Shown here one piece after another: positions 9,511-62,484 of a stretch of 64,000 nt of DNA; position 1 is the stretch's first letter, and every line of letters starts with the position of its first letter. The notes beneath the pieces were generated by a model. The model was not told the origin of the DNA. It did not search any database and saw only the letters and a list, made by a program, of their open reading frames with translations. The stretch comes from Candidatus Omnitrophota bacterium (GTDB taxonomy: Bacteria; Omnitrophota; Gorgyraeia; Zapsychrales; Fredricksoniimonadaceae): contig CAIOPG010000006.1 in NCBI GenBank assembly GCA_903860135.1, forward strand, positions 100,275 through 164,274, in the 5' to 3' direction. The position numbers were made by a program, and so were the translations under genes.

Positions 9511-9532
9511 GCGTTATCTGGCAGGTTCCGTT

Positions 9533-13776: not shown

Positions 13777-13778
13777 GT

Positions 13779-18844: not shown

Positions 18845-18894
18845 ACAGGGTTGTTGCTGACGGGGGATTTTGGGGATCTCCTATAATATTTAAC

Positions 18895-20589: not shown

Positions 20590-20595
20590 GGTGAT

Positions 20596-25191: not shown

Positions 25192-26694
25192 ATGAAAAGT
25201 GACGGCAAGAAAATAATTACGGGATACTTCTATAATCCATTATCTTTCATCGGGGCGATATTGGCCGTCCTCGTGTTGATGGCGGAGTTCGTGCTTTTTG
25301 GCATTGATTTTTACGGGCATTATTCCAATCTTTATCTTGGGTTGGGGACCTATCTTGTATTGCCGCCCTTTCTTATCCTCGGGATATTGATGATATTCCT
25401 TGGTTTCCTGCTTGAACGCCGTAAGGCGCGAATGGGTGTTGCGGGCGATCAAAAGGGGCGTTTTATTTTTGATTTCTCTCAACCGCAGACCCGCAATACG
25501 GGCATTATCATCGTCGTTGCTGCCGTTATTTTTATGATCATGACAGCGATCGGTACGTATAAAGCTTTTCATTACACGGAATCGGTCGCTTTCTGCGGCC
25601 TTCTTTGCCATGAAGTGATGAAACCTGAATATGTGGCCTATCAAAATTCGCCGCATGCCCGGGTCAAGTGCGTGGATTGTCATATCGGAGCCGGAGCCGG
25701 ATGGTATGTGCGTTCGAAGATATCGGGGGCTCGACAGGTGGTAAAGACGTTATTGAACAGCTATGAAAGGCCGATCCCTGTGCCGGTACACAATTTGCGC
25801 CCGGCCAAAGAAACATGCGAAGAATGCCACTGGCCCGGGAAATCGTTTGGCAACATTGAACAGGACCGGCAGTATTATTCAACAGGCAGCGACGGACAGC
25901 CTGCGCATTGGACATTACGCATGTTGATGCATGTGAGTGCCAAAGAGGGGAACAGCCAGGGTATCCACGCGCACATGTCGGCCAATAACAAGGTCTCTTA
26001 TGTTGCCAGTGACGAGAAGCGTCAGGTTATCACATGGATCAGGAGTGTGAATGATGCCGGCGTGGCGACTGTTTATACGACCAAGGATTCACCTTACAAG
26101 AATGCCGAACCGCCGCAAGGCAAGATCCGTCAGATGGATTGCATGGATTGCCACACACGGCCGTCCCATCACTATGAGGCTCCTATGCCGTTGGTGAATC
26201 GTGCTATAGCCGAAGGCAGGATCGATCCTGCGATCCCGCTGATCAAGGATAAGGCTGTGGCCGCTCTTGCCAGGAAATACTCAACGGAAGATGAAGCTGT
26301 TGCCGCGATCAGGACTTCATTGCTGGCATATTATAAGGAAAAACAGGCACCCTTTTATACAGCGCATGAAAAGAATATTCAGGGCAGTGTTGATGCCGTG
26401 GTTGATCTTTTCAAGCACAACATGTTCCCTGAGATGAAGGTTAGATGGGATGTTTATCCTGATAATATTGGTCACATGATATCTCCTGGCTGTTTCCGTT
26501 GCCATGATGGTGAGCATCAGTCTAATGCCGGCAAGGTGGTCACCCGTGATTGCCGTGTGTGTCATGCGATCATCGCGCAAGGACCGGCAGATAATGTGGA
26601 AAAAAGTGTGGATGGTCTTCCGTTCCGCCATCCCTTTGATGGTGACGAGTCCTGGAAAGAAATGAACTGCGCGGACTGCCACAGCGGTTCGTAA
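25192..26694 (+). CDS. membrane-anchored multihaem cytochrome c (about 7 haem-binding motifs)
   Basis: Three N-terminal TM helices, then six CxxCH motifs (CVDCH, CEECH, CMDCH, CFRCH, CRVCH, CADCH) and one CxxxCH (CGLLCH). Confidence 0.8.
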   Translation: MKSDGKKIITGYFYNPLSFIGAILAVLVLMAEFVLFGIDFYGHYSNLYLGLGTYLVLPPFLILGILMIFLGFLLERRKARMGVAGDQKGRFIFDFSQPQTRNTGIIIVVAAVIFMIMTAIGTYKAFHYTESVAFCGLLCHEVMKPEYVAYQNSPHARVKCVDCHIGAGAGWYVRSKISGARQVVKTLLNSYERPIPVPVHNLRPAKETCEECHWPGKSFGNIEQDRQYYSTGSDGQPAHWTLRMLMHVSAKEGNSQGIHAHMSANNKVSYVASDEKRQVITWIRSVNDAGVATVYTTKDSPYKNAEPPQGKIRQMDCMDCHTRPSHHYEAPMPLVNRAIAEGRIDPAIPLIKDKAVAALARKYSTEDEAVAAIRTSLLAYYKEKQAPFYTAHEKNIQGSVDAVVDLFKHNMFPEMKVRWDVYPDNIGHMISPGCFRCHDGEHQSNAGKVVTRDCRVCHAIIAQGPADNVEKSVDGLPFRHPFDGDESWKEMNCADCHSGS

Positions 26695-26716
26695 TGCTAT
26701 GTCACGGAGACACTGA

Positions 26717-27784
26717 ATGCCCCTAGTGCTCATCGGAGTCAACCACAAGACCTGCCCGCTCGAGATCAGGGAAAAATTCTTCCTTCAGCCGACGGAAAAA
26801 GAGCTCCTGCTGGCTGAATTCAAGAACGATCCGCGTGTCCTGGCCGCCATCATCCTGTCGACATGCAACCGCACCGAGATCTACGCTGACCTCCTTGACC
26901 TTGACGCGTCCATTATCCTCAAGCTTGTCCTTACCTTTAAAGGCCTCGCGCAGTCACCGGATCTGGAGCATTTCCTTTACGTGCGTCATGAAAAGGATGT
27001 CGTTGCCCATTTCTTCAGTGTTGTTGCCGGGCTTGATTCCATGATCCTCGGCGAGAAACAAATTTTAGGCCAGGTGAAGACGGCCGTGAGTTTGTCGCAA
27101 GAGCGGCAAATCCTCAACCGCACCCTGAATATCCTTTCCAATTTTGCGATTGAGACCGGCAAGAAAGTGCGCCGGGATACGCTGATCGACTGCGGCGGGT
27201 CATCTGTGTCCTGGGCGGCTGTAGCAAAGGCGCAGGAGATCCTCGGGTCACTCGAAGATAAGACAGTGCTGGTCCTGGGATCCGGGAAAATGGGGTCTTT
27301 GGCGATCCAGCAGTTGAAGAATAAAGGCGTAAAAAAGATCTTTGTGATGAACCGGACGCATGAAAAAGCGGAAACCCTCGCGGATGAATGCGGGGCGCAA
27401 GCCGTGCCTTTCTGGCAGATCCGGGATATCCTTGAGCAGTCCGATGTGTGCATTTGTTCCACCGGAGCACCCCATTATTTGGTGGACAAGGATTTGATCG
27501 AACAGGTGATGGCCGCGCGTCCCGCCAGGAGGCTTGCCGCCATCGACATCGCGGTGCCGCGCAATATTGATCCTCTGGTGGCTGAGGTCGCAGGCGTGAA
27601 ACTGGTTGCTGTGGATGACCTTGCGCAGACGGTGCAGGACAGTATGAACAAGCGCCATACGGCGGTTGAACAGGCAGAGAAAATCATTAATCTTAAGATG
27701 CATGAATTTTACAGGGCCCTTGACAAGGCGGCGATGTATGAATTGATGAAGGAATCTGGTGTATCGAAAGGGGCGTGTGCCTGA
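26717..27784 (+). CDS. hemA: glutamyl-tRNA reductase
   Basis: N-terminus LVLIGVNHKTCPLEIREKF and ...TCNRTEIY, with the NADP-binding GSGKMG. Confidence 0.9.
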   Translation: MPLVLIGVNHKTCPLEIREKFFLQPTEKELLLAEFKNDPRVLAAIILSTCNRTEIYADLLDLDASIILKLVLTFKGLAQSPDLEHFLYVRHEKDVVAHFFSVVAGLDSMILGEKQILGQVKTAVSLSQERQILNRTLNILSNFAIETGKKVRRDTLIDCGGSSVSWAAVAKAQEILGSLEDKTVLVLGSGKMGSLAIQQLKNKGVKKIFVMNRTHEKAETLADECGAQAVPFWQIRDILEQSDVCICSTGAPHYLVDKDLIEQVMAARPARRLAAIDIAVPRNIDPLVAEVAGVKLVAVDDLAQTVQDSMNKRHTAVEQAEKIINLKMHEFYRALDKAAMYELMKESGVSKGACA

Positions 27785-29571
27785 TGATGTCTGTTATCAA
27801 GAAATTGGGATCTGTCGGGTTTACGGTTATGATCAGCGTTGCCCTGATCCTTCTTCTGATCATCGCGACGTCCATGGAAGCGGTGCACGGGACGCCGTTT
27901 GCGCAGAAAGCCTTTTATCAAACGCGCTGGTTTGATATGGTGGTTGCTTTATTGTGGATCAATATTTTTTGTTCTACGGTGCTCAGGTTCCCGTTCAAGC
28001 AAGGGCAGATCGGTTTTTTGATCACACACAGCGGGATACTGCTACTTTTGACCGGGGCGTTGATGACGCGCATGTATGGCATTGAAGGCGAGATGACGAT
28101 CTTTGAAGGCGAGACCAGGAATGCGATCAAGCAGTCGGGGTATGCTTTAAGTGCCACGTTCCCGAATCAGGAAGAAGTTTTGTCCGACCTGCGTCAAGGG
28201 AATATTAAGGTTGCGTTGACACGCGAACGCTTGAATGCCGCGGCGCCTTTTTGCCCGCTTGAACCAAAGAAGGCCGTCGGTGATAGGGAACACCCGGAAC
28301 AAATGGTTGATGTTAATATTGTGAATATTATAGAAAAGGCATCCGAGCGCAGGCAAGTGATCATCGGGGATGCGCAGGCACCGGTCAATCATGCCATCGA
28401 GGTCAGGGTTCATAGCCAGCAATTGGCGCAGGACACTGCGGTATGGCTTGTTGAACATGACACCCAGGATCATGGGGCCGATACGGCCATGGCCGGGCCG
28501 ATCAAACTGATGATGCGCCCGGATGTTCGACCAGCACCGGCGCAGCAACCGATCCTCCATATTGTTGATCAAGCTGGCAAGGAGATTCTAGCTATTAATG
28601 TGAGTGACACCGGGCTGGCCAAAAGTATTCGCCTGGGCAAAACAGGTTTGACGATCAAAGATCTTGAATACTATCCCTATGCCACGGTATCGGCGAATAA
28701 GCTGATTAATTTTCCTGAAGGCAAGCGTTTGAATCCGGCTGTTGTTTTTAATCTGGTTGATGCTAAAAAAGTGTCTGTGCGCCAGGTCAAGTTCGCTTTT
28801 TTCCCGGAATTTGAGTCCATGCATCCGCAGGTTTCAAAAACAGCCGCGCGTGTCCAGATAAAATTTGAAGCTGGTAAACCGCAAGCGGTCGAAGAGCCGT
28901 TTGATGGTTTGCAGGTTTCTTTTGTGTACGATCAGGGAAATAGTTGGAAATACCGGACAAAGTTTCAGGATAAATTCTTGGCCGAGGGGAATGTGGTGGC
29001 GGGTGCTTGCGTGCCGGCGGGATGGAGCGATGCAGAGTTTTGTGTTCGCCAAACAATGTCCCGGGCTCAGATAAGTTATGATATAGCCCCATCGGAGAAT
29101 GGCCAGGGCGGGGTGTTGGCTGCGGCGGTTACGGTGCCTGCGGCAAGTCCTGCGGATGTTTTTTGGGTATTTGAAGGACGACGGACACCGGTGCGGTTAG
29201 CTCAGGGTGAGATTAAACTTTCCCTGGTGCCTGAAACACGGGCAATGCCTTTTGCTTTGACGTTGAAACAATTTAGGAAAGTTGATTATCCAGGGACGCA
29301 AGACGCGGCAAGCTACGAGAGCGATGTGGTCCTGGTCGATACCGTGCGCAAGGTGTCATTGGAACGCACGGTCGTCATGAATCATCCTTTGGAATATGAC
29401 GGTTACAAGATATTCCAGTCGTCATACTTCAATGATCCGGAAGCGGGCAAGGCGTCTGTCTTTACCGTTTCAAAAAATCCAGGTATCCCGTGGATTTACA
29501 TAGGATCGATCCTGGCGTGTCTCGGTGCTATATTTCAGTTCTATGGGCCTGAACAAAAGAAGGTGGCATGA
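27775..29571 (+). CDS. resB: cytochrome c biogenesis protein ResB/Ccs1 (system II)
   Basis: N-terminal TMs, a large periplasmic domain and a C-terminal TM, located immediately upstream of ccsA. Confidence 0.7.
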   Translation: MCLMMSVIKKLGSVGFTVMISVALILLLIIATSMEAVHGTPFAQKAFYQTRWFDMVVALLWINIFCSTVLRFPFKQGQIGFLITHSGILLLLTGALMTRMYGIEGEMTIFEGETRNAIKQSGYALSATFPNQEEVLSDLRQGNIKVALTRERLNAAAPFCPLEPKKAVGDREHPEQMVDVNIVNIIEKASERRQVIIGDAQAPVNHAIEVRVHSQQLAQDTAVWLVEHDTQDHGADTAMAGPIKLMMRPDVRPAPAQQPILHIVDQAGKEILAINVSDTGLAKSIRLGKTGLTIKDLEYYPYATVSANKLINFPEGKRLNPAVVFNLVDAKKVSVRQVKFAFFPEFESMHPQVSKTAARVQIKFEAGKPQAVEEPFDGLQVSFVYDQGNSWKYRTKFQDKFLAEGNVVAGACVPAGWSDAEFCVRQTMSRAQISYDIAPSENGQGGVLAAAVTVPAASPADVFWVFEGRRTPVRLAQGEIKLSLVPETRAMPFALTLKQFRKVDYPGTQDAASYESDVVLVDTVRKVSLERTVVMNHPLEYDGYKIFQSSYFNDPEAGKASVFTVSKNPGIPWIYIGSILACLGAIFQFYGPEQKKVA

Positions 29572-31133
29572 AAAAGATAATTTTTGCGGCAGGTATCGGT
29601 TTGTTGTGGGTAATGGTCGCTTATCCGGTATTGGCATCTGCCAAGCCTGAAGGTATCGCTATCCAGCATCATGGCCGGATCAAGCCATTTTCTGCTTTTG
29701 CCCAGGAAACCTTGCAATTGATCAGCGGTAAAGACCACTGGCAGGGGCAAACAGCAACAGCGTTATTCCTTACGAATCTTGATCATCCGCAACGTTTCCT
29801 TGATTTGCCGTTTATCAGGGTCGATCATCCGGCATTGAGAAAGTTGCTAAGCCTTCCTCTAGAAAGTGGCAATGTTTCTTATCAACAGATCATGTCAGCC
29901 GAGGAAACACTCCTGGCTTTGGTGCGCAGTGCTGCTGACAAACGTGCGGCAGACAAGCGGCCGTCGGCAATTGAACAGCAGGCAGAAACGGTGTATCAAC
30001 GTGTGACCGTTGTTCAGAGTTTATTTTCAGGAGCGTCGATCACGGTCATCCCGGCGGAAAGGGTGTGGTTATCGCCGTTTCAATCCGCAGAAGCACCTGC
30101 TGAAGCCTTCAAAAAGCTTGTGCATGCGTTGGCTGTCAAGGCTCCCGGATGTGACTTGGTTGTCCAACAATGGATCGTCGAGAGTCATCGCTCTATCAGC
30201 AAAGCGGTGCAGTTCCGTATCGAGATGGAGAGGATCTATTATCAATTTCAGCCTTTTTATCTGGCCTGGATCTTTTATCTGGGTGGTTTTATATTTTTAT
30301 TGCCTAGGCAACCGTGGGTCAGAAAGACAGGGAAGTTTCTGATTCTGGCGGGTTTCCTGGGGCATTTGACGGGAATAATTTTGCGTTGGACCATCTTGTT
30401 AAGGCCGCCGGTCGCCAATATGTATGAAACCATGATCTTTATGGACTTGATCCTGATGGTGACGGTGGGTGTATTTGTGATCGTGCGCAAGCGTCCTGCC
30501 TTCTTGTCGAGCGGTGCCTTGGTCAGTGCTTTGATCATGCTTTATGCCCGATTGTTGCCGGTCGATCAGTCCTTGGATGTCCTTACGCCGGTCCTGCGCA
30601 GCAGTTACTGGCTGACGGTGCATGTGATCACGATCATTTCCAGCTATAGCCTTTTTGCATTTGCCATGGCCGTGGCGCATCGACATCTGTTTTTGTCGGC
30701 ACGTGGCAAGCCTACACCGCACGAAGAGCAGATCTCGGCGGATACGATCCTGCGTTTGTTGCAGGCTGGCTTGATCGCCTTGGGTGCGGGCACGATCCTC
30801 GGCGGTGTATGGGCGAATGAGGCCTGGGGCCGTTTTTGGGGCTGGGATCCCAAAGAAACATGGGCTTTTATCACGTTCTTGGGATATATGGCCATTCTTC
30901 ATTTGCGTCATAGTCGACGGTTGAATGATTTTGCTCTGGCTGTCAGCGCAATCTTTGGATTCTTGCTGGTGGTGATGACATGGTATGGCGTAAACTTTGT
31001 CCTGGGTCGCGGTCTGCACAGTTATGGTACGGGTTCCGGTGGCTTGACCTGGATCATTTATTTTTTGATCTTTGAAGCAGTCTTTTTAGCTTTTGTTTTC
31101 ATCAATAAGAAATCTAACAACAAGGGGCGTTGA
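29568..31133 (+). CDS. ccsA: cytochrome c-type biogenesis protein CcsA/ResC
   Basis: WWD/haem-handling motif WGRFWGWDPKETW, a polytopic membrane protein. Confidence 0.85.
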   Translation: MKKIIFAAGIGLLWVMVAYPVLASAKPEGIAIQHHGRIKPFSAFAQETLQLISGKDHWQGQTATALFLTNLDHPQRFLDLPFIRVDHPALRKLLSLPLESGNVSYQQIMSAEETLLALVRSAADKRAADKRPSAIEQQAETVYQRVTVVQSLFSGASITVIPAERVWLSPFQSAEAPAEAFKKLVHALAVKAPGCDLVVQQWIVESHRSISKAVQFRIEMERIYYQFQPFYLAWIFYLGGFIFLLPRQPWVRKTGKFLILAGFLGHLTGIILRWTILLRPPVANMYETMIFMDLILMVTVGVFVIVRKRPAFLSSGALVSALIMLYARLLPVDQSLDVLTPVLRSSYWLTVHVITIISSYSLFAFAMAVAHRHLFLSARGKPTPHEEQISADTILRLLQAGLIALGAGTILGGVWANEAWGRFWGWDPKETWAFITFLGYMAILHLRHSRRLNDFALAVSAIFGFLLVVMTWYGVNFVLGRGLHSYGTGSGGLTWIIYFLIFEAVFLAFVFINKKSNNKGR

Positions 31134-31137
31134 TCCC

Positions 31138-31488
31138 ATGAAAAACAATAAGAAAAGGAATCGTATGCGCAGTCGACTTCTAAAATTATTTGCAATACTT
31201 CCCGTGATTTCAGCAGGTTTTATTATTATCAACCTGCCAGCACGCGCGGATGTCGCCGAGATGAAAAAGTATAAAGAAGCTTTTCCCGAAACAAAGCCCA
31301 AGTGCATCAATTGCCATGTGGCCGAGCTTCCCAAGAAAGAAGAAGCGGCGCATGAGTGGAACGATTACGGCAAAGCTGTTATGGCGCAAGTGGCAAAGGA
31401 TGGTATCAAGGGCGATGAAGCTGATGAACCTCGTCCGACACCTGAAACGTATACGCGTGTGGGTAAGATCGAAGATTTCAAAAAATAA
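31138..31488 (+). CDS. small secreted monohaem cytochrome c
   Basis: Signal/TM segment and a single CINCH motif. Confidence 0.55.
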   Translation: MKNNKKRNRMRSRLLKLFAILPVISAGFIIINLPARADVAEMKKYKEAFPETKPKCINCHVAELPKKEEAAHEWNDYGKAVMAQVAKDGIKGDEADEPRPTPETYTRVGKIEDFKK

Positions 31489-31506
31489 AGATACCGAAGG
31501 AGGTTT

Positions 31507-32292
31507 ATGAGAGCTAACCATTCTTTTTTTTTATGTTTAACAAGGGCCATGTTTTTGAGTGTGGCACTGTTTTGCTTGGTCTTTTGCGCCGGGAGAATAT
31601 CGAATGCTCAGGCACTGGTCGAGCAGAAAGCTCCTTCTGTGTCGCAGAAGGGGGCAACGTATGTGGGCATGGAAACCTGCGCCACGTGCCACGAGGATCA
31701 GGCAAAGCAATTCAAACTTTCACCGCACGCCAGGTTGGTGACAAAGGGCACAAAGGATGTGCCTCAGGCGTGCGAAACGTGCCATGGACCGGGCAGTATC
31801 CATGCGGAGAACGGCGGCGGTAAAGGGAATGCCATCACCAATCCCAAGAAAGACCCAACGATTTGTTTCACGTGTCATACGGAAAAGAAGATGGAATTCC
31901 GCCTGCCCAATCATCACCCGGTGCTCGAGGGCAAGATGAGCTGTGTGGATTGCCATGAAATGCATGGTTCTGATGCCAAAGCATCGGCAACGTCCATGGA
32001 AGGGCCCAATGAGACGTGTTTCAAGTGCCACAAGGATCAACAGGGGCCGTTTGTGTATGAACATCCAGCGATGCGTGAAGGCTGCACCTCGTGCCATAAG
32101 GTGCATGGATCCATTAATGCGAAAATGTTGCTGGCCAGGGATTTCAATCTTTGTGTAAAATGTCATTCTCAGGCAAATTTCCCGACGCTGGTTACAGACA
32201 ATCACGCAACTAATATGCAGCGGGCAGGCGCTTGCTGGGAGTGCCACACCCGGCCGCATGGGTCTAATTTTGCGCCAAAATTTACGTATTAA
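31507..32292 (+). CDS. periplasmic octahaem cytochrome c
   Basis: Signal peptide and eight CxxCH motifs (CATCH, CETCH, CFTCH, CVDCH, CFKCH, CTSCH, CVKCH, CWECH) in about 230 mature residues. Confidence 0.8.
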   Translation: MRANHSFFLCLTRAMFLSVALFCLVFCAGRISNAQALVEQKAPSVSQKGATYVGMETCATCHEDQAKQFKLSPHARLVTKGTKDVPQACETCHGPGSIHAENGGGKGNAITNPKKDPTICFTCHTEKKMEFRLPNHHPVLEGKMSCVDCHEMHGSDAKASATSMEGPNETCFKCHKDQQGPFVYEHPAMREGCTSCHKVHGSINAKMLLARDFNLCVKCHSQANFPTLVTDNHATNMQRAGACWECHTRPHGSNFAPKFTY

Positions 32293-32304
32293 AAAGGGGG
32301 TCCA

Positions 32305-34383
32305 GTGATGCGCGATCACTTCGGGGTTAAATTAGTCAGATTTATGTTGGCTGTGGTGATGTTGATGGCATGGAGTGTACCTTCTTTTGCCCAGGAAAGC
32401 GCGGTGGTTTTGACATTGAGGCCGGTTCAGACGGCTTTTGTTAAAGGGGACGTGTCAAAATTCAGGGCGATCAATTGGACCAAGGATGGCGCACAATCCG
32501 GGATCAAGGCGTTGCTCCTTGATGTCAAACCGACAAAAGATGTCACAGTGTCTTTTGAGGGCAGTGGCATGGTCGGTGATGCGGATTATACCGGCGGGAT
32601 GCTGGTTACCAAAGAGAACCTGGGGTATGTGAAGTTCAATTATGATTCTTTCCGGAAGTATTATGATAATAAGGGTGGGTACTATCCTTTTCCTTCAGCG
32701 GGGATGGCGTTACAGACATTGACTCAAGATCTGAAGCTGGATGTGGGGCATTTTGCCGTTGAGATCGGCAAAGGCACTGCCAGTGACCCTGATTTCAGCG
32801 TTGGTTATGAACGCGCCACCAAGAATGGTATCAAAGACAGTACGACCTGGGGGTATGTCAAAGATTATGCGTATAATGCCAATGCGACGGTTAATCGCAA
32901 AAAGATTGCACCGATCTTTATTACCAAAGATGAAATCACGGACACGTTGACTGTTAAAGGCAAGGTGGATGTGGCAGGATTTAAGGTCAAGGGTGAACAG
33001 AAGTATGTTTTCTTCAAGGGTAATAATTTACGTGAAGAGCGTGTTTACGGCAGCGCAGGGGCAACCACGGCTGAGAATAAGATCACGCGTCAGACGGAAA
33101 CACCGCAGACCAAGGAATTGTCATCGGTGATCCGCGCCGAGCGCTGGTCATTGAATGATAAGACGTATGTGGCCATGGGGTATCGTTTTGGCCATGTGCG
33201 TAATTCCATGCTTTATGTGTCCAGGGATTATAATTCAGCGACAGGGCTCTTGTTGTGGTCAGCCGGAAATTTCAAGGATGGATATGCCCAGAATATTCAG
33301 GATACGCATACGGTGACGGGCATGATGTCATCGAACCTGACCGATCAGTTGACGCTGATCTCCAGGGTTAAGGGAGAATTAAAAAGTAGTTATGGCACCA
33401 GCCATCAGTATTTCTTGAATAGCGCTGAAGTAGGGACGACGGATCTTTATCAGGTGAATGAAGACAAAGTGACCAACAGTGCTGAAAGTTTCTCGCTGAG
33501 GTATGCCGGGATTGCACGGACAAGCCTTTATGCGGACCTTGAGTTGAGCCAGGAACGGAACTGGAAGGCGTTAAATTATCCAACATCATGGTCGACGTCG
33601 GCACCGAATCCGGCACTGTTGCTTTCGGAAACGATCAACCATGTGCCTGAAACAGTGGGGACGCTGGGAATGCGCGTAACCCCGGTTGACAAGGTGAGCC
33701 TGACGACCGAACTTAAGTATAAAGAAAAGATAGATAAGCTGGATAAGGTCACGGGCTCTGCGGCGACGTATATCAATAAGCTCAATACCGTTTCTGAGGA
33801 GGTATCAACGCGCCTGGCCTGGAAGCCGTTTAAATGGCTGGAGAATTCTTTTAAGGTCAAGGCGGTGGATAACCTTTACCGTATCCAGGCCATGAACTTT
33901 AACAAGGTCAAGATGCCGGGCACCGAGCGTGATTTTATCTATGGCATTAATCTTATGCCGACGGATCAGGTGATGGTTAACCTGTCGTATGCACTGCAAT
34001 TATCCAAGACAGGCGGGATCGGGGATCAAAGTGTTTACGCCCCGCCGCCGTATACCGCCAATGTGTATACCTGGGCGTTGAGCAGCAGTTATGCGCCGAC
34101 GGAGAAATTTATTTTCTTCGATTCCCTGGAGTACTCAAGGGCCAAGAACCAGACGAATGTTGACGGGAAAAGCATTACGACAACGCTGGCGTCGATGGGA
34201 CCCATGCTCATGGGGCTCGACCAGGAATGGTACAGCATTGACAATGGGGTTAAATGGCTGCCGACCAAGAGCCTGACCATTGAACCGCATTATGCGTATT
34301 ATGCTTTCCGTAATTTTGAAGGCGTATCTACCGGCAATTACAGCGCGCATGTTATCTGGCTGGATGTGAATGTGACGTGGTGA
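32305..34383 (+). CDS. large outer-membrane beta-barrel protein (candidate porin partner of the adjacent cytochromes)
   Basis: Signal peptide ending AQE, 692 aa, a pattern of alternating hydrophobic residues and a C-terminal aromatic (..VNVTW). Confidence 0.5.
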   Translation: MMRDHFGVKLVRFMLAVVMLMAWSVPSFAQESAVVLTLRPVQTAFVKGDVSKFRAINWTKDGAQSGIKALLLDVKPTKDVTVSFEGSGMVGDADYTGGMLVTKENLGYVKFNYDSFRKYYDNKGGYYPFPSAGMALQTLTQDLKLDVGHFAVEIGKGTASDPDFSVGYERATKNGIKDSTTWGYVKDYAYNANATVNRKKIAPIFITKDEITDTLTVKGKVDVAGFKVKGEQKYVFFKGNNLREERVYGSAGATTAENKITRQTETPQTKELSSVIRAERWSLNDKTYVAMGYRFGHVRNSMLYVSRDYNSATGLLLWSAGNFKDGYAQNIQDTHTVTGMMSSNLTDQLTLISRVKGELKSSYGTSHQYFLNSAEVGTTDLYQVNEDKVTNSAESFSLRYAGIARTSLYADLELSQERNWKALNYPTSWSTSAPNPALLLSETINHVPETVGTLGMRVTPVDKVSLTTELKYKEKIDKLDKVTGSAATYINKLNTVSEEVSTRLAWKPFKWLENSFKVKAVDNLYRIQAMNFNKVKMPGTERDFIYGINLMPTDQVMVNLSYALQLSKTGGIGDQSVYAPPPYTANVYTWALSSSYAPTEKFIFFDSLEYSRAKNQTNVDGKSITTTLASMGPMLMGLDQEWYSIDNGVKWLPTKSLTIEPHYAYYAFRNFEGVSTGNYSAHVIWLDVNVTW

Positions 34384-34432
34384 TGTGCATTTATTTTATT
34401 GATCGATCAACGAGGGTGTTGAAGCGTTCCAT

Positions 34433-34462
34433 GAAATCCCCGGTCGTGTGATCGGGGATTTC
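34433..34462 (+). other. perfect 10-bp inverted repeat hairpin (gaaatccccg / cggggatttc, 10-nt loop) between the barrel gene and cysG-N
   Basis: Read directly from the sequence. It has no T-run, so it is not a canonical intrinsic terminator. Confidence 0.4.
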
Positions 34463-34478
34463 CATCATAGAGGTAGGC

Positions 34479-35123
34479 ATGGGGTATAAGGTATATTATC
34501 CGGTTAATCTGGATTTAAACGGCAAACGATGCCTGGTGGTCGGCGGCGGGGCAGTGGCGGCCCGCAAGGCGCTCACGCTTATGGCCTTTGGCGGGGTCGT
34601 CACGGTGATCAGCCCGACGCTGGACCCGTTATTGCGGTGCCAGGTTAAATCAGGCAAGATCAGCTATATAGCCGGGAAATATCATCAGAAATTCATGGCA
34701 GGGGCAGCGGTTGTCATTGCGGCCACCGATGATCCGGCGGTGAATCAAATGGTATTCACGCATGCGGTGCGACGCAATATCCTGGTCAATGTGGTGGATG
34801 TACCGGAGTTGTGCACGTTCATTGTGCCGGCGATCGTCAGGCGAGGGCCTTTGGTACTGGGGATATCGACCAGCGGTCAAAGCCCGATGTTCGCGCAGCA
34901 ACAAAAGAAAATGTGTGAAGCCTGCCGAACGCCGCGGCACGGGGATTTTGTCCGCATGATGGGATCGGTGCGTGCCAGGATCAAGCGGCAGTACGCCACG
35001 ATTCCGGAGCGTAAGGCGGTGCATGCGAAGCTCATGGATTCGAACATCCTTGATCTTGTGCTTGCTGGTAAGGCTGTTGCGGCGCGGAAGGTCTTGCTGT
35101 CTATTCTCAAAGGGCGGGTATGA
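34479..35123 (+). CDS. precorrin-2 dehydrogenase / sirohydrochlorin ferrochelatase (siroheme synthase N-terminal domain)
   Basis: Rossmann motif LVVGGGAVAARK with CysG-N/SirC-like length and context. Confidence 0.8.
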   Translation: MGYKVYYPVNLDLNGKRCLVVGGGAVAARKALTLMAFGGVVTVISPTLDPLLRCQVKSGKISYIAGKYHQKFMAGAAVVIAATDDPAVNQMVFTHAVRRNILVNVVDVPELCTFIVPAIVRRGPLVLGISTSGQSPMFAQQQKKMCEACRTPRHGDFVRMMGSVRARIKRQYATIPERKAVHAKLMDSNILDLVLAGKAVAARKVLLSILKGRV

Positions 35124-36058
35124 TCGACAAGAAAATCATTGTCGGGGCTAGGAAAAGTCAGTTATCATTGACGCAGACCAATGGCGTTATAACTGTTTTA
35201 AAAGGGTTTTTCCCGGATTATGACTTTGAATTAAAGACGATTACGACGGCAGGCGACCGGAGCATGGAACCTGCGGCACTCTTTAATCATCAGGGAATTT
35301 TTGTCAAGGAGATCGAGGAAGCGCTGTTGCGCGGCGCAATCGACCTTGGGGTCCACAGTTTGAAGGATATGCCGTGTGCTATCCGTGATGGTTTGGCCCT
35401 GGGGGCTGTCGGTGAGCGTGAAGATCCGCGCGATGCGTTTTTGTCGCGCGACGGGTCAGCATTATGTGATCTGAAGCCAGGCGCTTTGATCGGAACGAGC
35501 AGTGTGCGCCGTCGGGCACAGCTTCTCCTCGCGCGCCCCGACCTTAAGGTGGTTGAGATGCGCGGGAATGTGGATACGCGGCTAAGGAAACTACAGGCGG
35601 GCGAGGTGGATGCCCTGGTTATTGCCTGTGCCGGTTTGGTGCGCCTGGGGCAGGAGCCGTGCATTACAGAACGTTTGTCGCTGGATATGATGCTGTCGGC
35701 GCCTTGCCAGGGGGCGTTGGGCCTTGAGATCCGGCACGATGATGCACGACTCAGGGCGGTTGCCGCGCGGTTTGACCATGCGTTGACGCGGGCGTGTGTG
35801 ACGGCAGAAAGAGCCTTCCTGCAAACATTAGGCGGCGGCTGCAGTTTGCCGGTGGGCGCGTTGGCACGACTGGAAGCTGGTGTGTTCACCCTGACGGGGC
35901 AGGTGGTTGATCCTGACGGGAAGAAAGCGATCCGGCGGAGTGTGTCAGGTCCTATGGCTGCGCCGCAAGCGCTCGGCGAAACGTTGGCCAGGGAATTATG
36001 GGATGCTGACGGGGCGTGGATAAAGCTAGCGTTACAAAGTCCATATTCTAAGAAATAA
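35120..36058 (+). CDS. hemC: porphobilinogen deaminase (hydroxymethylbilane synthase)
   Basis: ...IVGARKSQLSLTQT... and ...GGCSLPVGA... Confidence 0.9.
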   Translation: MIDKKIIVGARKSQLSLTQTNGVITVLKGFFPDYDFELKTITTAGDRSMEPAALFNHQGIFVKEIEEALLRGAIDLGVHSLKDMPCAIRDGLALGAVGEREDPRDAFLSRDGSALCDLKPGALIGTSSVRRRAQLLLARPDLKVVEMRGNVDTRLRKLQAGEVDALVIACAGLVRLGQEPCITERLSLDMMLSAPCQGALGLEIRHDDARLRAVAARFDHALTRACVTAERAFLQTLGGGCSLPVGALARLEAGVFTLTGQVVDPDGKKAIRRSVSGPMAAPQALGETLARELWDADGAWIKLALQSPYSKK

Positions 36059-36069
36059 CAACTTAGAAT

Positions 36070-36216
36070 GTGATCTTTTACGGGTTCTTAAAGCTTGCAG
36101 TAGCCCTTGCTGCTCAGACAGCAGAAACAGCTTTTTCTTGAAATATTTTTATGGAAAGCCTGGTTTCTGAACTCGCGACGGCGGGATACTTCCAGCTTTA
36201 AACCAGTAAAAGCTAG
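36070..36216 (+). repeat. copy 1 of a ~146-nt structured intergenic element (nested inverted repeats), upstream of cobA–hemD
   Basis: About 90% identical to 40967–41111. An outer stem cttttacgggttcttaaagcttg / cagctttaaaccagtaaaag encloses an inner hairpin ctgct-cagac-agcag. Confidence 0.8.
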
Positions 36217-36254
36217 GCGTAATTTAATATATGAAAAGATCGGGACATTAGGTT

Positions 36255-37799
36255 ATGAGATCAGGTAAAGTTTATCTTGTCGGTGCCGGGCCTGGGGATA
36301 TCGGGCTGGTCACACTCAAAGCGGTTGATCTTCTGAAGGCCGCGGATGTGGTGGTGTACGATCAGCTTGTTAATCCTGAAATCCTGGCTTTTGCCCGGCA
36401 AGGCGCGGAGCTTGTGTTTGCAGGAAAATATGCGGGCGATCATGTGTTGGGCCAGGCGGAGATCAATCAGGTCCTCATCGACAGGGCGCATCAGGGAAAA
36501 GCGGTGGTCCGTTTAAAGGGCGGGGATCCGCTGCTTTTTGGCCGCGGTGCCGAGGAAGCCTTGGAGCTGGCCGAAGCCGGGGTGCTTTTTGAGATCGTTC
36601 CGGGTGTGAGTTCTGCCTATGCGGTTCCGGCTTATGCGGGGATCCCGGTCACGTACCGCAATATTTCTTCGCGGCTTAATATTGTCACTGGCCATGAAAC
36701 GCCCGATAAAGGCAAGGCCGTGATCCCGTGGAAGAAGCTTCTCGATAAAAATGGCACGCTTGTTATTCTGATGGGGTTTGGCAATCTGGAGACTATTGTC
36801 CGGCAGATCGTAACGACACCCGAAGCGTTGAAGACGCCGGTGGCCTTGATCAGCAGGGGCACACGCCCCGAACAGCTGGTGGTGACAGGGGTCCTTTCCA
36901 ATATTGTGAAGAAAGTTAAAGCGTCAGGCATGAAGGCCCCGGCGATCATTGTGATCGGGGCGGTGGTGAATTTGCGCAAGAAACTCGACTGGTTCAAGCC
37001 GGAACTTCCGTTGAAAGGCAAGCGGATCCTTGTGACGCGGCCCGTGCATCAGGCCAGTGTGCTGGCTGATCTTTTAAAACGTCAGGGGGCCAGTGTAACC
37101 GCCATACCGCTCATCACCGTCGTTGCATCGAGGGATGTGGCAGGTATCAGGTCGACACTGCATGATCTGGACCAGTATGACTGGATCGTTTTAACCAGTG
37201 TCAACGGAGCGGTTTTTTTTCTGAAGGCACTGGGGCGTCACAAGATCAGCCTTGATCGCTTGAAGGGCAAGAAATTCGCGGCCATTGGTAAAAAGACGGC
37301 CGAGCACCTGGAAGCCGCCGGGATCAAGGTGGACCTGACGCCGCGGGAGTTTGTTCAGGAAGGGCTGGCCGATGCCATGATCCAGGCCATTGCCACAGGG
37401 TCAAGGCGTGTCCTTTTGCCGCATGCCGCCGGAAGCCGGACGGTCCTTGAACAGCGTCTGCGCGCCGCCGGGCTTAAAGTGGATACACTCGATCTGTACA
37501 GCACCAGGCCGGTCACGGAAAATCATCGGCGTGTGAAGAAGCTGTTTGAGGATCGCAAAGTTGATGCGGTCATGCTCACCAGTTCATCGTGTGCGGAAAG
37601 TTTTATCGATGTGTTTGACCGTTCACGCCTGAAGCAAGCGGTGGGGGATGTTGTTATGGCGTCGATCGGTCCGATCACGTCGGCAACCATCCGCAAGGCC
37701 GGCTTGGCCGTGGCGGTGGAAAGTCAGGAGTCGACGATCGAAGGTGTTACCCATGCGCTTGTGGGCTATTACCGTCAATCAAAGAAAGACGCCACATGA
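36255..37799 (+). CDS. fused uroporphyrinogen-III C-methyltransferase / uroporphyrinogen-III synthase
   Basis: N-terminal CobA/SUMT (VYLVGAGPGDIGLVTLKA...VVYD); the C-terminal ~250 aa are HemD-like. Confidence 0.85.
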   Translation: MRSGKVYLVGAGPGDIGLVTLKAVDLLKAADVVVYDQLVNPEILAFARQGAELVFAGKYAGDHVLGQAEINQVLIDRAHQGKAVVRLKGGDPLLFGRGAEEALELAEAGVLFEIVPGVSSAYAVPAYAGIPVTYRNISSRLNIVTGHETPDKGKAVIPWKKLLDKNGTLVILMGFGNLETIVRQIVTTPEALKTPVALISRGTRPEQLVVTGVLSNIVKKVKASGMKAPAIIVIGAVVNLRKKLDWFKPELPLKGKRILVTRPVHQASVLADLLKRQGASVTAIPLITVVASRDVAGIRSTLHDLDQYDWIVLTSVNGAVFFLKALGRHKISLDRLKGKKFAAIGKKTAEHLEAAGIKVDLTPREFVQEGLADAMIQAIATGSRRVLLPHAAGSRTVLEQRLRAAGLKVDTLDLYSTRPVTENHRRVKKLFEDRKVDAVMLTSSSCAESFIDVFDRSRLKQAVGDVVMASIGPITSATIRKAGLAVAVESQESTIEGVTHALVGYYRQSKKDAT

Positions 37800-38983
37800 T
37801 CAGTTTTACCGGATTATTGAATGACATCACCTCGTATGGGGACAACCTGCGTTATCGCCGTCACGCGGATCCGTCGCGCCGCCGCCCCATCGCGGTCTGG
37901 AATTGTTCCCGGCGCTGTAACCTGAGTTGTGTGCATTGTTACGCGGATTCGCGCGATACCGCCTATGCCGGAGAATTGACGACCGATGAAGCCAAGGCCA
38001 TGATCCGTGACCTTAAGGATTTTAACGTGCCGGTCCTTTTGTTTTCAGGCGGCGAGCCGTTGATGCGCCCTGATTTGTTTGAATTGAACGTTTATGCCCG
38101 GGAACTTGGCCTGCGCACGGTGATCTCGACCAACGGCACATTGATCACGCCAGAAGTCGCGCGCAAGATCAAAGCTACAGGGTTTGAATATATCGGTGTC
38201 AGCCTCGACGGGATCGGCAAGAACAATGATCGGTTCCGCGGCAAGATCGGGGCTTTTGAGGATGCCTTAAATGGCATCAGGAATCTGGTCGATGTCGGGC
38301 AGAAAGTCGGCCTGCGTTTTACGATCACGGGGCACAATTACCGCGACATGCCGCTGCTTTTTGATCTCGTCGAGAAAGAAGCGGTGAACCGTATTTGTTT
38401 TTATCACCTGGCGTATTCAGGGCGCGGCACAGATCTTAAAGAGAATGACCTGGGTTTGGAGGAAACGCGGCAGGCCATTGATCAGATCTATGAATGGGTC
38501 CTTTCTTTAAAACGGCGGGCGCTCGCCAAAGAGGTGTTGACCGTCGATAACCATGCTGACGGCGCGTATCTTTATTTGAAAGTCAAACGCGCGGATCCGG
38601 TGATGGCCGAGGCCATTTATCATTTGTTGAGGGCCAATGGCGGCAATGCGTCGGGGGTGGGTATTTCCAATATTGATAATGTCGGGAATGTGCATGGTGA
38701 TCAATTCTGGCAGAAGGTGTCTTTCGGTAATGTCAGGGAACGCAAGTTCGGTGATATCTGGATGGACACATCGCATGCGCTCATGGGCAAGCTCAAGGAC
38801 CGTCAGCCGCATTTGAAGGGAAGATGCCCCACGTGCAAGTTCCTGGATATTTGCAATGGCAATCTGCGGGTCCGTGCCTGGGCGGCGACAGGCGATGTCT
38901 GGGCCGATGACCCGGCGTGTTATTTGACAGACAAGGAAGTCTTTGAAACGGAAACGCCAGCTGTAAAGGTTCCGGGACAATGA
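37796..38983 (+). CDS. radical-SAM/SPASM enzyme of the alternative haem pathway (AhbC/AhbD type)
   Basis: CSRRCNLSCVHCY CxxxCxxC motif and a Cys-rich C-terminal SPASM-like region, embedded among hem/ahb genes. Confidence 0.65.
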   Translation: MISFTGLLNDITSYGDNLRYRRHADPSRRRPIAVWNCSRRCNLSCVHCYADSRDTAYAGELTTDEAKAMIRDLKDFNVPVLLFSGGEPLMRPDLFELNVYARELGLRTVISTNGTLITPEVARKIKATGFEYIGVSLDGIGKNNDRFRGKIGAFEDALNGIRNLVDVGQKVGLRFTITGHNYRDMPLLFDLVEKEAVNRICFYHLAYSGRGTDLKENDLGLEETRQAIDQIYEWVLSLKRRALAKEVLTVDNHADGAYLYLKVKRADPVMAEAIYHLLRANGGNASGVGISNIDNVGNVHGDQFWQKVSFGNVRERKFGDIWMDTSHALMGKLKDRQPHLKGRCPTCKFLDICNGNLRVRAWAATGDVWADDPACYLTDKEVFETETPAVKVPGQ

Positions 38984-39972
38984 CGCATCCTGCCAGAAAA
39001 GCTATTATTAAAAAACTGGCACCGGCGGCCTGTGGTTTTTCCCTGATCATGCCGTATTTTGTTATTGAAGGCAAAGGCATCAGGAATCCGGTTGTATCCA
39101 TGCCGGGGGTTGCCCAGCTGTCGATCGACAACCTGATCAAAGAGGTGGCGCTCGCCCGGAAGCTGGGGATTCCCGCTGTACTTATCTTCGGGATACCAGC
39201 GCATAAAGATCTGCGGGCAACCCAGGCGTATGCCCCTGACGGGATCGTGCAACAGGCCGTGCATGCCCTGAAGAAGGCCGTGCCGGAGATGATGGTCATC
39301 ACCGATGTTTGCCTGTGCGAGTACATGACCCATGGCCATTGCGGTGTGCTGAAGGACATGACGGGGCGACGCGCCATGCCGGCACGCCTCGCTGATTTCA
39401 TTGATCTCAAGCAAACACGAAAACTATTGGCAGTCACAGCCCTGACACAGGCGCGTGCGGGAGCGGATATGGTGGCGCCGTCGGCCATGATGCCCGGACA
39501 GGTGGGCGCCATCCGCGCGGTGCTTGATGAGAACGGGTTTAAACATATCCCGATCATGGGGTACAGCGCAAAATACGCCTCGGCGTTCTACGGGCCTTTC
39601 CGTGATGCCGCGCAGTCAGCGCCGAAGTTCGGCGACCGTTCCTTGTATCAACTGGATCCGGCCGATGCCCTGATCGCGCTCAAGGAAGTGGCGGCAGATA
39701 TTGATGAACAGGCGGACATTGTCATGGTTAAACCGGCGTTGCCGTACCTTGATGTGATCGCGCGGGTTCGAAGAAAGTTTAAGGCCCCTTTGGCCGCGTA
39801 CAATGTCAGCGGGGAATATGCCATGGTCAAGGCGGCCGCGGCCAACGGCTGGCTCGACGAGAAGAAAACAGTCCTTGAAATATTGACGGCGATCCATCGT
39901 GCCGGCGCGGGCATCATCATCAGTTACCATGCCTGTGACGCGGCGGTGTGGCTTAAGGAGACAAAGAAATGA
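38980..39972 (+). CDS. hemB: porphobilinogen synthase (ALA dehydratase)
   Basis: ...VMVKPALPYLD... active-site Lys context and ...GYSAKYASAFYGPFRDA... Confidence 0.9.
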   Translation: MTHPARKAIIKKLAPAACGFSLIMPYFVIEGKGIRNPVVSMPGVAQLSIDNLIKEVALARKLGIPAVLIFGIPAHKDLRATQAYAPDGIVQQAVHALKKAVPEMMVITDVCLCEYMTHGHCGVLKDMTGRRAMPARLADFIDLKQTRKLLAVTALTQARAGADMVAPSAMMPGQVGAIRAVLDENGFKHIPIMGYSAKYASAFYGPFRDAAQSAPKFGDRSLYQLDPADALIALKEVAADIDEQADIVMVKPALPYLDVIARVRRKFKAPLAAYNVSGEYAMVKAAAANGWLDEKKTVLEILTAIHRAGAGIIISYHACDAAVWLKETKK

Positions 39973-40940
39973 TCATTTCATGGAATATCACCAAGGCCTG
40001 CCAGTTGAAATGCCTGCATTGTTACCGGGATGCCGGCACGAAAGAAGCCGATGAATTGACTCCGGCGGAGGGTAAGGAGTTGATCGACGAGATCGCTCTC
40101 GCCGGGTTCAAGATCCTCATTATCAGCGGCGGAGAGCCGTTGATGCGCCCGGATGTGTATGACCTGATCGCGCATGCCAGGTCTAAAGGGTTGCGTCCGG
40201 TATTAGGGACCAACGGGTGCATGATCGACCGCACGGTGGCACGGAAGCTCAAGGAAGCCGGGCTCACGCGGGCCGGGATCAGCCTCGACAGCACCGATGC
40301 GGCGGTGCATGACAACTTCCGCCAGTATCCGGGCGCCTGGCAAGAAAGCCTGGCTGGGATGAAAGCGTGCCTCGATGAAGGCCTGGATTTTCAGATCCAC
40401 ACCACGGTGACAACGTATAATTATCAGAATGTCGAGAAGATCACGGACCTGGCGGTTACCCTTGGCGCCAAGGCGCATCATATCTTTTTTCTTGTCCCGA
40501 CGGGCAGAGGCAAAGACCTTGAAGCCCTGATCCCCTCGCATGCATATCAGGCGCTCTTGAAAAAGATCATGCACAAACAGCGTGCGGTCTCCATCGAATT
40601 AAAACCGGTGTGCGCGCCGCAATTTGTACCCTTGGCACAGGACATGCATCAGCCGACACGGTTTCAGCGCGGCTGTCTGGCGGGGGTCAGCTATTGCTGT
40701 ATCCTGCCCAATGGGGATGTGCATCCATGTCCCTATTTCCCGATCAAGGTTGGGAACACGCGCGCACAGAAATTCAGCGCGCTGTGGAAAAGCCATCCGC
40801 TGTTCAAGGAGTTGCGCGACGGGGAGTATAGCGGTAACTGCGGCGGCTGTCTGCATAAAACGACCTGCGGCGGGTGCCGTGCCCGGGCCTATGCCGCGAC
40901 GGGCAATTACATGGATTTTGACCCGGAGTGCATTTATTAA
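39969..40940 (+). CDS. radical-SAM/SPASM enzyme of the alternative haem pathway (AhbC/AhbD type)
   Basis: ITKACQLKCLHCY motif and a C-terminal Cys cluster (CGGCLHKTTCGGCRARA). Confidence 0.65.
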   Translation: MIISWNITKACQLKCLHCYRDAGTKEADELTPAEGKELIDEIALAGFKILIISGGEPLMRPDVYDLIAHARSKGLRPVLGTNGCMIDRTVARKLKEAGLTRAGISLDSTDAAVHDNFRQYPGAWQESLAGMKACLDEGLDFQIHTTVTTYNYQNVEKITDLAVTLGAKAHHIFFLVPTGRGKDLEALIPSHAYQALLKKIMHKQRAVSIELKPVCAPQFVPLAQDMHQPTRFQRGCLAGVSYCCILPNGDVHPCPYFPIKVGNTRAQKFSALWKSHPLFKELRDGEYSGNCGGCLHKTTCGGCRARAYAATGNYMDFDPECIY

Positions 40941-40966
40941 TTGTGCGTGTTGCTTGAAAATATCAG

Positions 40967-41111
40967 TGTGATCTTTTACCGGTTCTTAAGGCTTGCGGAT
41001 GCCTTGCTGCTCAGACAGCAGAAACAGCTTTTTCTTGAAATACTTTAAGGAAAGCTTGGTTTCTGAACTCGCGACGGCGGCACTCTTCAGCCTTAAACCG
41101 GTAAAAGCTAG
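40967..41111 (+). repeat. copy 2 of the ~146-nt structured intergenic element, upstream of ahbA
   Basis: Same architecture as copy 1. Its outer stem is cttttaccggttcttaaggcttg / cagccttaaaccggtaaaag, with compensatory changes (aag→agg in the 5' arm paired with ctt→cct in the 3' arm) relative to copy 1. Confidence 0.8.
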
Positions 41112-41130
41112 TCGGAAATATGGTTATTAT

Positions 41131-41583: not shown

Positions 41584-41584
41584 T

Positions 41585-57352: not shown

Positions 57353-57354
57353 CC

Positions 57355-59417: not shown

Positions 59418-59419
59418 TT

Positions 59420-60668: not shown

Positions 60669-62484
<1,816 letters not shown>

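Follow-up and report, generated by a model that had tools for sequence, protein, structure and literature searches.

A candidate eight-haem MtrAB-type porin–cytochrome conduit set in a haem-biosynthesis gene string of an Omnitrophota bacterium

To our knowledge, porin–cytochrome conduits are the only well-understood route by which respiratory electrons cross the outer membrane of diderm bacteria. The closest analogues of the locus described here are, together with MtrAB, the MtoAB system of Sideroxydans and Gallionella, which is accompanied by MtoD and CymA/MtoC, and the PioAB system of Rhodopseudomonas palustris. We analysed a 64,000-nucleotide stretch (the window) of contig CAIOPG010000006.1 from a Candidatus Omnitrophota bacterium, in which a sequence-only reading had proposed a porin–cytochrome module comprising a monohaem cytochrome, an octahaem cytochrome, and an outer-membrane β-barrel. 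As in MtoAB and PioAB, an MtrA-homologous cytochrome is followed by an MtrB-homologous barrel without a surface cytochrome, and the same cluster encodes a small monohaem cytochrome and an inner-membrane multihaem cytochrome of the quinone-linked kind. The window differs from those systems in that its cytochrome carries eight haems rather than ten, its barrel is too diverged for PF11854 or NCBIfam, its inner-membrane partner is of the ImcH type and not CymA/MtoC, its monohaem cytochrome has no detectable family, and its host belongs to the Omnitrophota instead of the Pseudomonadota. The four proteins probably form a compact electron route that links the quinone pool of the inner membrane to the cell surface, with outward electron flow favoured.

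The module extends past the three genes of the sequence-only reading to an ImcH-type cytochrome gene, and its members are as follows, in window coordinates.

25192–26694, + strand: ImcH-type inner-membrane multihaem cytochrome, 500 amino acids (aa), seven haem sites (transmembrane segments, haem motifs, PF03264)
31138–31488 (alternative start 31165), + strand: small secreted monohaem cytochrome c, 107–116 aa (CINCH motif, signal segment)
31507–32292, + strand: octahaem MtrA-homologous cytochrome, 261 aa (eight CxxCH motifs, MtrA match)
32305–34383 (ATG at 32308), + strand: predicted outer-membrane β-barrel, 691/692 aa (AlphaFold2 model, hhalign match to MtrB-like barrels)

The three open reading frames of the reading are present on the + strand at the positions it gave, and each product begins with a hydrophobic signal segment. 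They lie immediately behind resB/ccsA, as claimed: ccsA ends at 31133, leaving a spacer of 4 nt before the monohaem gene, followed by spacers of 18 nt between the monohaem and octahaem genes and 12 nt between the octahaem and barrel genes.

The octahaem cytochrome contains exactly eight CxxCH motifs, at residues 58, 89, 120, 146, 171, 193, 216, and 243, a cluster that is not due to chance. With a cleavage site read by eye after residue 36, its mature form would be about 225 aa, in keeping with the secreted eight-motif protein of roughly 230 aa that had been described. Processing as a lipoprotein at LVFC (residues 24–27) is unlikely: the Phe at −1 would be unusual, relatives do not retain the Cys, and the motif is followed by an AQA cleavage site. 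The eight haem sites are all retained in 20 homologues from related loci and in 46 from the database, together with eight further His residues outside the motifs, which fits a set of eight bis-His haems. At the last site (residue 243), the window and its nearest relatives (L001–L003) have CXXCH (CWECH), whereas almost every other member of the family, the more distant L018 and L019 among them, has CX4CH (e.g., CWSAGCH). A database search returned 1671 homologues of the protein at E ≤ 1e-10.

Its affinities lie with MtrA. The octahaem cytochrome matches Shewanella MtrA (PDB 6R2Q_A, E 3.7e-30) and, by BLASTP, is 33% identical over residues 57–254 (E 1e-31) to MtrA of Photobacterium sp. DA100, whose MtrA and MtrB were taken from a bona fide mtrCAB locus, the only one in the plasmid collection. 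Matches to curated models fall below their cutoffs: 172.3 bits against 192.2 for the DmsE-family model TIGR03508, and 178 bits (E 2.3e-52) against 325 for NF041028, the GSU2203-family decahaem model and best NCBIfam match. Among 71 cytochromes encoded upstream of canonical MtrB-like barrels in a metagenome sample, 69 have ten CxxCH motifs. Judged by these alignments, the octahaem protein is genuinely homologous to the MtrA/DmsE family and lacks two of its haems. BLASTP aligns its motifs with MtrA haems 3–10, dropping haems 1 and 2, while HMMER and MAFFT alignments instead drop two in the middle of the N-terminal half (haems 3 and 4); because MtrA is internally repetitive, the choice between the two cannot be made from sequence. 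The ten-haem chain of MtrA in 6R2Q spans roughly 80 Å. By proportion, eight haems would reach about 60–65 Å, which is still more than the outer membrane.

The downstream gene encodes 692 aa from a GTG at 32305, or 691 aa from the ATG at 32308 used in public gene calls for identical proteins on a 305-kb contig. Its signal peptide ends between SFA and QES, its C-terminus is VNVTW, and it contains no Cys and hence no CxxCH. An AlphaFold2 model built from a 19-sequence alignment (predicted local distance difference test score, pLDDT, 75.7; predicted template-modelling score, pTM, 0.63) consists, past the signal helix, only of long antiparallel strands, approximately 26 in number, in agreement with the signal-peptide-bearing outer-membrane barrel of MtrB size that had been proposed. 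Foldseek comparison of this model with the PDB returned large outer-membrane barrels only. TonB-dependent receptors led by E-value, and MtrB (6R2Q_B) had the highest template-modelling score (TM-score) among the top 50 PDB matches, at 0.49/0.52 versus 0.33–0.44 for the TonB receptors.

Assigning the barrel by conventional searches gave no result: it has no match in Pfam or NCBIfam (E ≤ 0.1) or in a phmmer search of the PDB, hmmsearch of the PDB with 19- and 68-sequence barrel profiles returned none, and no pairwise similarity to MtrB was detectable in the PDB searches. Assignment to LptD, alginate-export proteins, or TonB receptors was rejected, as no such family model matched and the TonB-receptor TM-scores fall below that of MtrB. 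Of its relatives, 5/68 match PF11854 (MtrB_PioB) below threshold (best single match seen 22.1 bits, cutoff 23), and 13/68 weakly match the GSU2204-family model (17–27 bits, cutoff 350); the latter matches are not collinear between proteins and were treated as a hint only. The family is nevertheless large, though unnamed, since an exhaustive HMMER search of 1.84 billion representatives (50% identity) recovered 797 clusters at E ≤ 0.001 and 322 at E ≤ 1e-30. A word-indexed protein search gave just 19 and 16 barrel matches.

We therefore turned to profile–profile comparison. From 80 metagenomic loci encoding MtrA relatives, 77 adjoining MtrB-like barrels were collected by jackhmmer seeded with Photobacterium MtrB (510 bits on PF11854), and an alignment of the 48 full-length members served as the hhalign target; scanning the metagenomes with Photobacterium MtrB alone gave no match. 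The 19-sequence Omnitrophota profile aligned to this target at 98.8% (E 5.6e-17, 638 columns, query 4–687, MtrB 7–738) and the 68-sequence profile at 99.8% (E 3e-28, 616 columns, query 36–693, MtrB 46–741), both collinearly and over the full length. As controls, a reversed MtrB alignment, which retains composition and strand periodicity, scored 3% and 20%, and a circularly permuted alignment matched the corresponding halves only. Full-length collinear alignment together with failure of the reversed controls places the barrel in the MtrB/PioB superfamily, and at the profile level it is a remote MtrB/PioB homologue beyond the reach of current family models. The proposed check against MtrB/PioB models thus came out divided, with no barrel match from curated models and 98.8–99.8% from profile–profile comparison. 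With MtrA homology on one side and profile homology to MtrB/PioB on the other, the resemblance to the MtrAB/PioAB layout is borne out.

The comparison with Shewanella MtrCAB (6R2Q) is similar in kind. Shared features are the MtrA match, a barrel of about 26 strands closest to MtrB by TM-score, and the cytochrome-then-barrel order. The window lacks MtrC, two haems of the N-terminal half are missing, and the barrel, being free of Cys, cannot carry the N-terminal CXXC motif of Shewanella-type MtrB, which is known only from the gammaproteobacterial metal-reducer subgroup.

The pairing of octahaem cytochrome and barrel is retained well beyond the window. Searching with the barrel yielded loci in the genomes of 13 GTDB species, of which ten carry an Omnitrophota or Omnitrophica label and three the label "uncultured Planctomycetales", with barrel identity down to 29–31%; the octahaem gene lies directly upstream in all 12 that have upstream sequence. 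Searching with the cytochrome yielded two unlabelled metagenome contigs and one metagenome-assembled genome (MAG) labelled Eisenbacteria, and a family barrel lies directly downstream in 3/3 (E 1e-204 to 1e-216), bringing the adjacency to 15/15 Omnitrophota-type loci. The pair also occurs in 4/4 cases from the more distant L017 (a MAG labelled Verrucomicrobia), L018, and L019 (phylum unverified for both), whose barrels are about 20% identical to that of the window and match the Omnitrophota profile at E 1e-75 to 1e-98. In L018 and L019, an upstream gene encodes a multihaem protein of some 805 aa that carries PKD or BACON domains and looks like a surface cytochrome. L017 (744–7188) holds two tandem cytochrome–barrel pairs, in which one cytochrome is truncated to 192 aa with six CxxCH motifs plus CX4CH.

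A different form of association is found in 14/68 members of the barrel family (P0225, P0230, P0231, P0235, P0239, P0247, P0249, P0253, P0256, and P0262 among them), where one or two PSCyt1 ("Planctomycete cytochrome c") monohaem domains are fused to the N-terminus. The only fused form viewed in context, from Roseibacillus (Verrucomicrobiota; L015/L016, with L015 at 1869–4613), has no MtrA-like neighbour. Such proteins suggest an MtrB-derived cytochrome–porin analogous to Cyc2: like the fused cytochrome–porins of the Cyc2 type, distant family members (P0225, P0247, and others) join monohaem domains to the barrel N-terminus, whereas the window barrel is unfused and would work with a separate octahaem protein. 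The Cyc2 barrel is also described as much smaller. As adjacency or fusion is found in all groups, cytochrome association is a property of the whole barrel family.

These data bear on whether the barrel could be an ordinary solute channel or structural outer-membrane protein, with the cytochromes serving some other periplasmic enzyme and no haem wire crossing the membrane. Such a reading could draw on the lack of any family assignment for the barrel itself in Pfam, NCBIfam, or the PDB and on the TonB-dependent receptors that head the Foldseek matches by E-value. However, those receptors score below MtrB by TM-score and no plug-domain or TonB-receptor model matches; adjacency to an MtrA homologue is invariant even though the barrels share only about 20–30% identity; some homologues carry fused cytochrome domains; profile homology to MtrB-like barrels is full-length; and no catalytic reductase gene is conserved in the cluster. 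We consider a bystander porin highly improbable. The outcome named in advance as fatal to the proposal, a barrel of an unrelated family such as LptD or alginate export with non-cytochrome neighbours, did not materialise, as the conserved neighbours are cytochromes in every locus examined.

An inner-membrane partner is encoded in the same cluster. ImcH proteins are described as having about 495–519 aa, three N-terminal transmembrane helices, a CX3CH motif beside the transmembrane region, approximately six CXXCH motifs, and a NapC/NirT-like region (PMC6295460). The product of 25192–26694 agrees with this architecture on every point, with transmembrane segments at residues 11–42, 47–77, and 99–126, followed by CX3CH (CGLLCH, residue 135) and six CXXCH motifs, and a match to the NapC/NirT region PF03264 (E 1.6e-13); an NrfH match fell below its cutoff. 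An ImcH-type homologue lies inside the cluster in 14/16 Omnitrophota-type loci. Its place differs between them: it may precede hemA, the arrangement of the window, follow the barrel at a distance of a few genes (L004, L010), or adjoin the barrel on its downstream side (seven loci: L008, L011–L013, and L020–L022). In L021 (12457–14337) and L022 (12531–14354 and 14425–16792), the ImcH-type gene is followed by CbcL-like genes encoding multihaem c and Ni_hydr_CYTB cytochrome b domains, so that in these loci an MtrAB-type conduit is clustered with homologues of the two inner-membrane quinol oxidases of the Geobacter type.

The small cytochrome c that had been named as first gene of the module is confirmed by a single CINCH motif and an N-terminal signal segment. 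The open reading frame at 31138–31488 encodes 116 aa, and public gene calls use the ATG at 31165 for a product of 107 aa. The protein, rich in Lys, matches no family in Pfam or NCBIfam; homologues occur in 12/16 related loci with KC..CH conserved, and a second His is retained in 14/15 sequences. The gene is a single copy in the window and duplicated in tandem in L005 (8413–9126) and L007 (8541–9186), two MAGs whose isolate names resemble those of a magnetotactic-bacteria MAG set, a resemblance that is unverified.

The window further encodes components of a quinone-based chain: a polyprenyl synthase, a 564-aa electron-transfer flavoprotein (ETF):quinone oxidoreductase, and a 645-aa fused ETF beta–alpha protein at 17867–22533, and complex I-like NuoB, C, D, and H, a 209-aa open reading frame, and NuoJ, L, and M at 56385–63942. 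Since no open reading frame lies between the NuoD- and NuoH-like genes, NuoE/F/G homologues are absent from their usual position, which suggests an 11-subunit type enzyme. There is also a FadL-type transporter at 1968–3269, and the ETF, ETF:quinone oxidoreductase, and FadL genes hint at fatty-acid or acyl-CoA oxidation feeding the quinone pool.

Taken as one path, the seven-haem ImcH-type membrane protein would exchange electrons with (mena)quinol, the Lys-rich monohaem cytochrome would shuttle them through the periplasm, and the octahaem protein, threaded in the 26-strand MtrB-like barrel, would conduct them across the outer membrane via eight bis-His haems. This proposal is carried by the MtrA and MtrB homologies, the conservation of haem sites and ligands, the predicted barrel fold, and the conserved gene linkage; complex formation, localisation, the role of the monohaem protein, co-transcription, and the direction of flow are inferred. 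The 64-kb window contains no MtrC/OmcB-like extracellular cytochrome, so the terminal haem of the octahaem protein would face its external redox partner directly, in the way proposed for MtoAB and PioAB; that partner might be soluble or chelated Fe, humic quinones, a mineral face, or another cell. For the same reason the conduit would be of the two-component cytochrome–barrel type known from PioAB and MtoAB (PMC6344600). With outward flow, the cell would respire extracellular acceptors anaerobically, the electrons being supplied by the complex I-like enzyme and ETF:quinone oxidoreductase.

Multihaem conduits are reversible in principle. The same hardware could thus import electrons, whether from extracellular Fe(II), reduced humics, a partner cell, or a cathodic mineral, and the monohaem protein would hand them either to the ImcH-type protein, then working as a quinone reductase, or to some periplasmic or terminal reductase, in the manner of MtoAB-MtoD-CymA or PioAB. 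We judge inward flow unlikely but take it seriously, because a two-component conduit with a monohaem shuttle is the known architecture of Fe(II) oxidisers: PioAB and MtoAB likewise lack a surface MtrC/OmcB-type cytochrome (PMC6344600), and the clustered small monohaem cytochrome appears to parallel the MtoD of mto clusters (PMC6295460). The isolate names of several related MAGs, tentatively linked to a magnetotactic-bacteria MAG set, would likewise suit an iron redox physiology. Set against this, ImcH homologues were found only in Fe(III) reducers in a 2018 survey and interpreted as quinol oxidases (PMC6295460), related loci (L021, L022) add CbcL-like partners, and the window holds no terminal oxidase or other electron sink; the neighbouring genes, nuo and ETF:quinone oxidoreductase, are electron-donating. 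It is these ImcH/CbcL partners and dehydrogenases that lead us to favour export.

Several points weigh against an outward-conducting MtrAB-type path. The subfamily is known from sequences and models alone. The AlphaFold2 model of the octahaem protein, built without haems, is unusable at pLDDT 51, and the length of that protein and its fit in the barrel are extrapolated from MtrA only. The barrel misses every curated MtrB/PioB model, with sub-threshold matches only among its relatives; hhalign of the family profile against one MtrB sequence was weak and out of register (112 columns, 63%); and β-barrels are prone to spurious profile similarity, though the reversed control argues otherwise here. 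The ImcH identity is an assignment by architecture to the family of G. sulfurreducens ImcH (GSU3259). Finally, the absence of a surface cytochrome goes together with Fe(II) oxidation in PioAB and MtoAB, which makes the direction uncertain.

Two further sets of described systems approach the module. In freshwater Verrucomicrobia, He et al. (2017, PMC5615132) predicted a "novel porin-MHC" (multihaem cytochrome) in which a porin of 20 or more strands is paired with a periplasmic cytochrome whose eight haem sites are conserved, a pair described there as non-homologous to the Shewanella and Geobacter systems. L017–L019 have exactly such a pair, with barrels in the hidden Markov model family of the window; the 2017 clusters differ in often having a large extracellular multihaem cytochrome and in lacking ImcH or haem-biosynthesis linkage. 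From the matching descriptions, we infer that the two families are identical. In Geobacter sulfurreducens, GSU2203 (OmcK) and GSU2204 are induced by hematite and magnetite (PMC4070692), and a 2026 review treats the GSU2204-family model as an MtrB/PioB-type barrel. The likeness lies in the best NCBIfam match of the octahaem protein and the weak GSU2204 matches in 13/68 barrels. The scores are far under the cutoffs, however, GSU2203 is a decahaem protein, and GSU2204 has its own CXXCH and in some species selenocysteine, neither of which is found in the window barrel. On present sequence comparisons, the evidence points to the Mtr lineage; of the features of the Geobacter OmaB-OmbB-OmcB porin–cytochrome conduit (Pcc), the outer-surface lipoprotein cytochrome has no counterpart in the window.

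In several Omnitrophota loci, the module comes with a secreted nine-CxxCH cytochrome of 383–450 aa, encoded behind the barrel or the ImcH-type gene (L004 11980–13218, L010 11266–12567, L013 2682–3965, L003 1271–2623, L008 4359–5627, and upstream on the − strand in L005). This cytochrome is absent from the 64-kb window and could be an extra periplasmic or surface partner.

The + strand from 25192 to 43314 is a single uninterrupted co-directional run of genes with short or negative spacers (−10 nt between hemA and resB, −4 nt between resB and ccsA), and a terminator scan saw no terminator-like hairpin in its intergenic gaps. Besides the four module genes, the run comprises the following.

26717–27784, + strand: hemA (Pfam GlutR_N/Shikimate_DH)
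27775–29571, + strand: resB/ccs1 (Pfam ResB; NCBIfam CcsB, E 2e-46)
29568–31133, + strand: ccsA (Pfam Cytochrom_C_asm)
34479–35123, + strand: sirC/cysG-N (Pfam)
35120–36058, + strand: hemC (Pfam)
36255–37799, + strand: cobA-hemD fusion (Pfam)
37796–38983, + strand: radical-SAM enzyme (Pfam; PDB sequence match to radical SAM enzymes)
38980–39972, + strand: hemB (PDB sequence match to ALAD, E 1e-91)
39969–40940, + strand: radical-SAM-like gene (named from motifs and synteny only)
40993–42055, + strand: two sirohaem-decarboxylase-like genes (NirD-like/AhbAB PDB match, E 1.8e-40; open reading frame 40993–41583 from motifs and synteny only)
42052–43314, + strand: hemL-like aminotransferase (Pfam)

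The module is thus inserted in a hemA-ccsBA-...-sirC-hemCD-ahb-hemB-hemL gene string and is presumably co-transcribed with it. The haem route encoded at 34479–43314 looks like the sirohaem-dependent alternative, given sirC, cobA-hemD, two radical-SAM genes, and two AhbA/B-like (NirD-like) decarboxylase genes, and hemA, hemB, hemC, and the hemL-like gene share one string with these. The position of the module would couple production of haem proteins to haem supply and System II maturation.

Such a setting would also be explained if the module were an assimilatory device, reducing extracellular Fe(III) for iron uptake and, for example, haem supply. The module does lie between ccsA and sirC/hemC in the window and in the related L001, L002, L003, L005, and L007, with only the upstream ccs genes in L009 and L021. 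Haem-synthesis and ccs genes flank it in closer relatives only, though, and in L008, L011–L013, and L020 the octahaem–barrel–ImcH trio is kept although the haem and ccs genes lie in other places or on the opposite strand; the linkage is therefore lineage-specific, and the cytochrome–barrel–ImcH core is not. Since the trio persists without the haem genes in distant loci, reductive iron uptake should hardly call for a seven-haem membrane protein coupled to quinol, and the cluster contains no iron transporter, we hold an assimilatory role to be very unlikely and retain the respiratory conduit as the preferred reading.

Elsewhere in the window, the sole − strand gene near the run encodes a secreted 228-aa trypsin-like serine protease (24355–25041), divergent from the ImcH-type gene and with a distant homologue in L011. 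A complete MoxR-DUF58-BatA-BatB-TPR-BatD aerotolerance-type operon lies at 8515–15572, and a second large VWA/YfbK protein is encoded at 53701–55899 behind an extracytoplasmic function (ECF) sigma factor.

Porin–cytochrome conduits such as MtrAB(C), MtoAB, and PioAB are known, a cluster of like description was predicted in 2017 in Verrucomicrobia, and the window adds no new principle. What appears to be new is the profile-level evidence that the barrel is a remote MtrB/PioB homologue, the occurrence of the conduit across Omnitrophota with a conserved monohaem and ImcH-type partner, its insertion in a haem-biosynthesis/Ccs gene string, and the cytochrome-fused relatives of the barrel. We found no description of an Omnitrophota porin–cytochrome module in the searchable literature, which misses most subscription-journal papers. 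Surveys rely on curated MtrA, MtrB, MtoAB, and PioAB models, and the present module escapes them, its barrel giving no match and its cytochrome falling below the cutoffs. The 2018 survey recorded three ImcH homologues in Ca. Omnitrophica and no mtrAB or mtoAB beside imcH (PMC6295460). If functional, the locus would be the first to tie an ImcH-type quinol oxidase clearly to an MtrAB-type conduit at the genomic level, a link that the survey did not find. It would also represent a minimal eight-haem MtrA wire, informing how many haems are needed per membrane crossing and the design of compact synthetic conduits.

Together, these findings suggest that electron exchange with minerals, humic matter, or partner cells is within the reach of Omnitrophota, a poorly known phylum. 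Discussion of its members usually centres on ultra-small fermenters, syntrophs, predators, or magnetotactic oddities. A bolder and more tentative possibility is that many Omnitrophota carry a complete extracellular electron-transfer chain (ImcH with or without CbcL, monohaem shuttle, and eight-haem MtrAB-type conduit) in a haem operon as a core trait, and that the same barrel lineage also yielded an MtrB-derived counterpart of Cyc2; the core trait would then consist in respiring extracellularly or in exchanging electrons directly with a host or partner cell. If functional, the module would add Omnitrophota and more Verrucomicrobiota to the organisms that respire or tap minerals, humics, and partner cells in anoxic freshwater and sediment.

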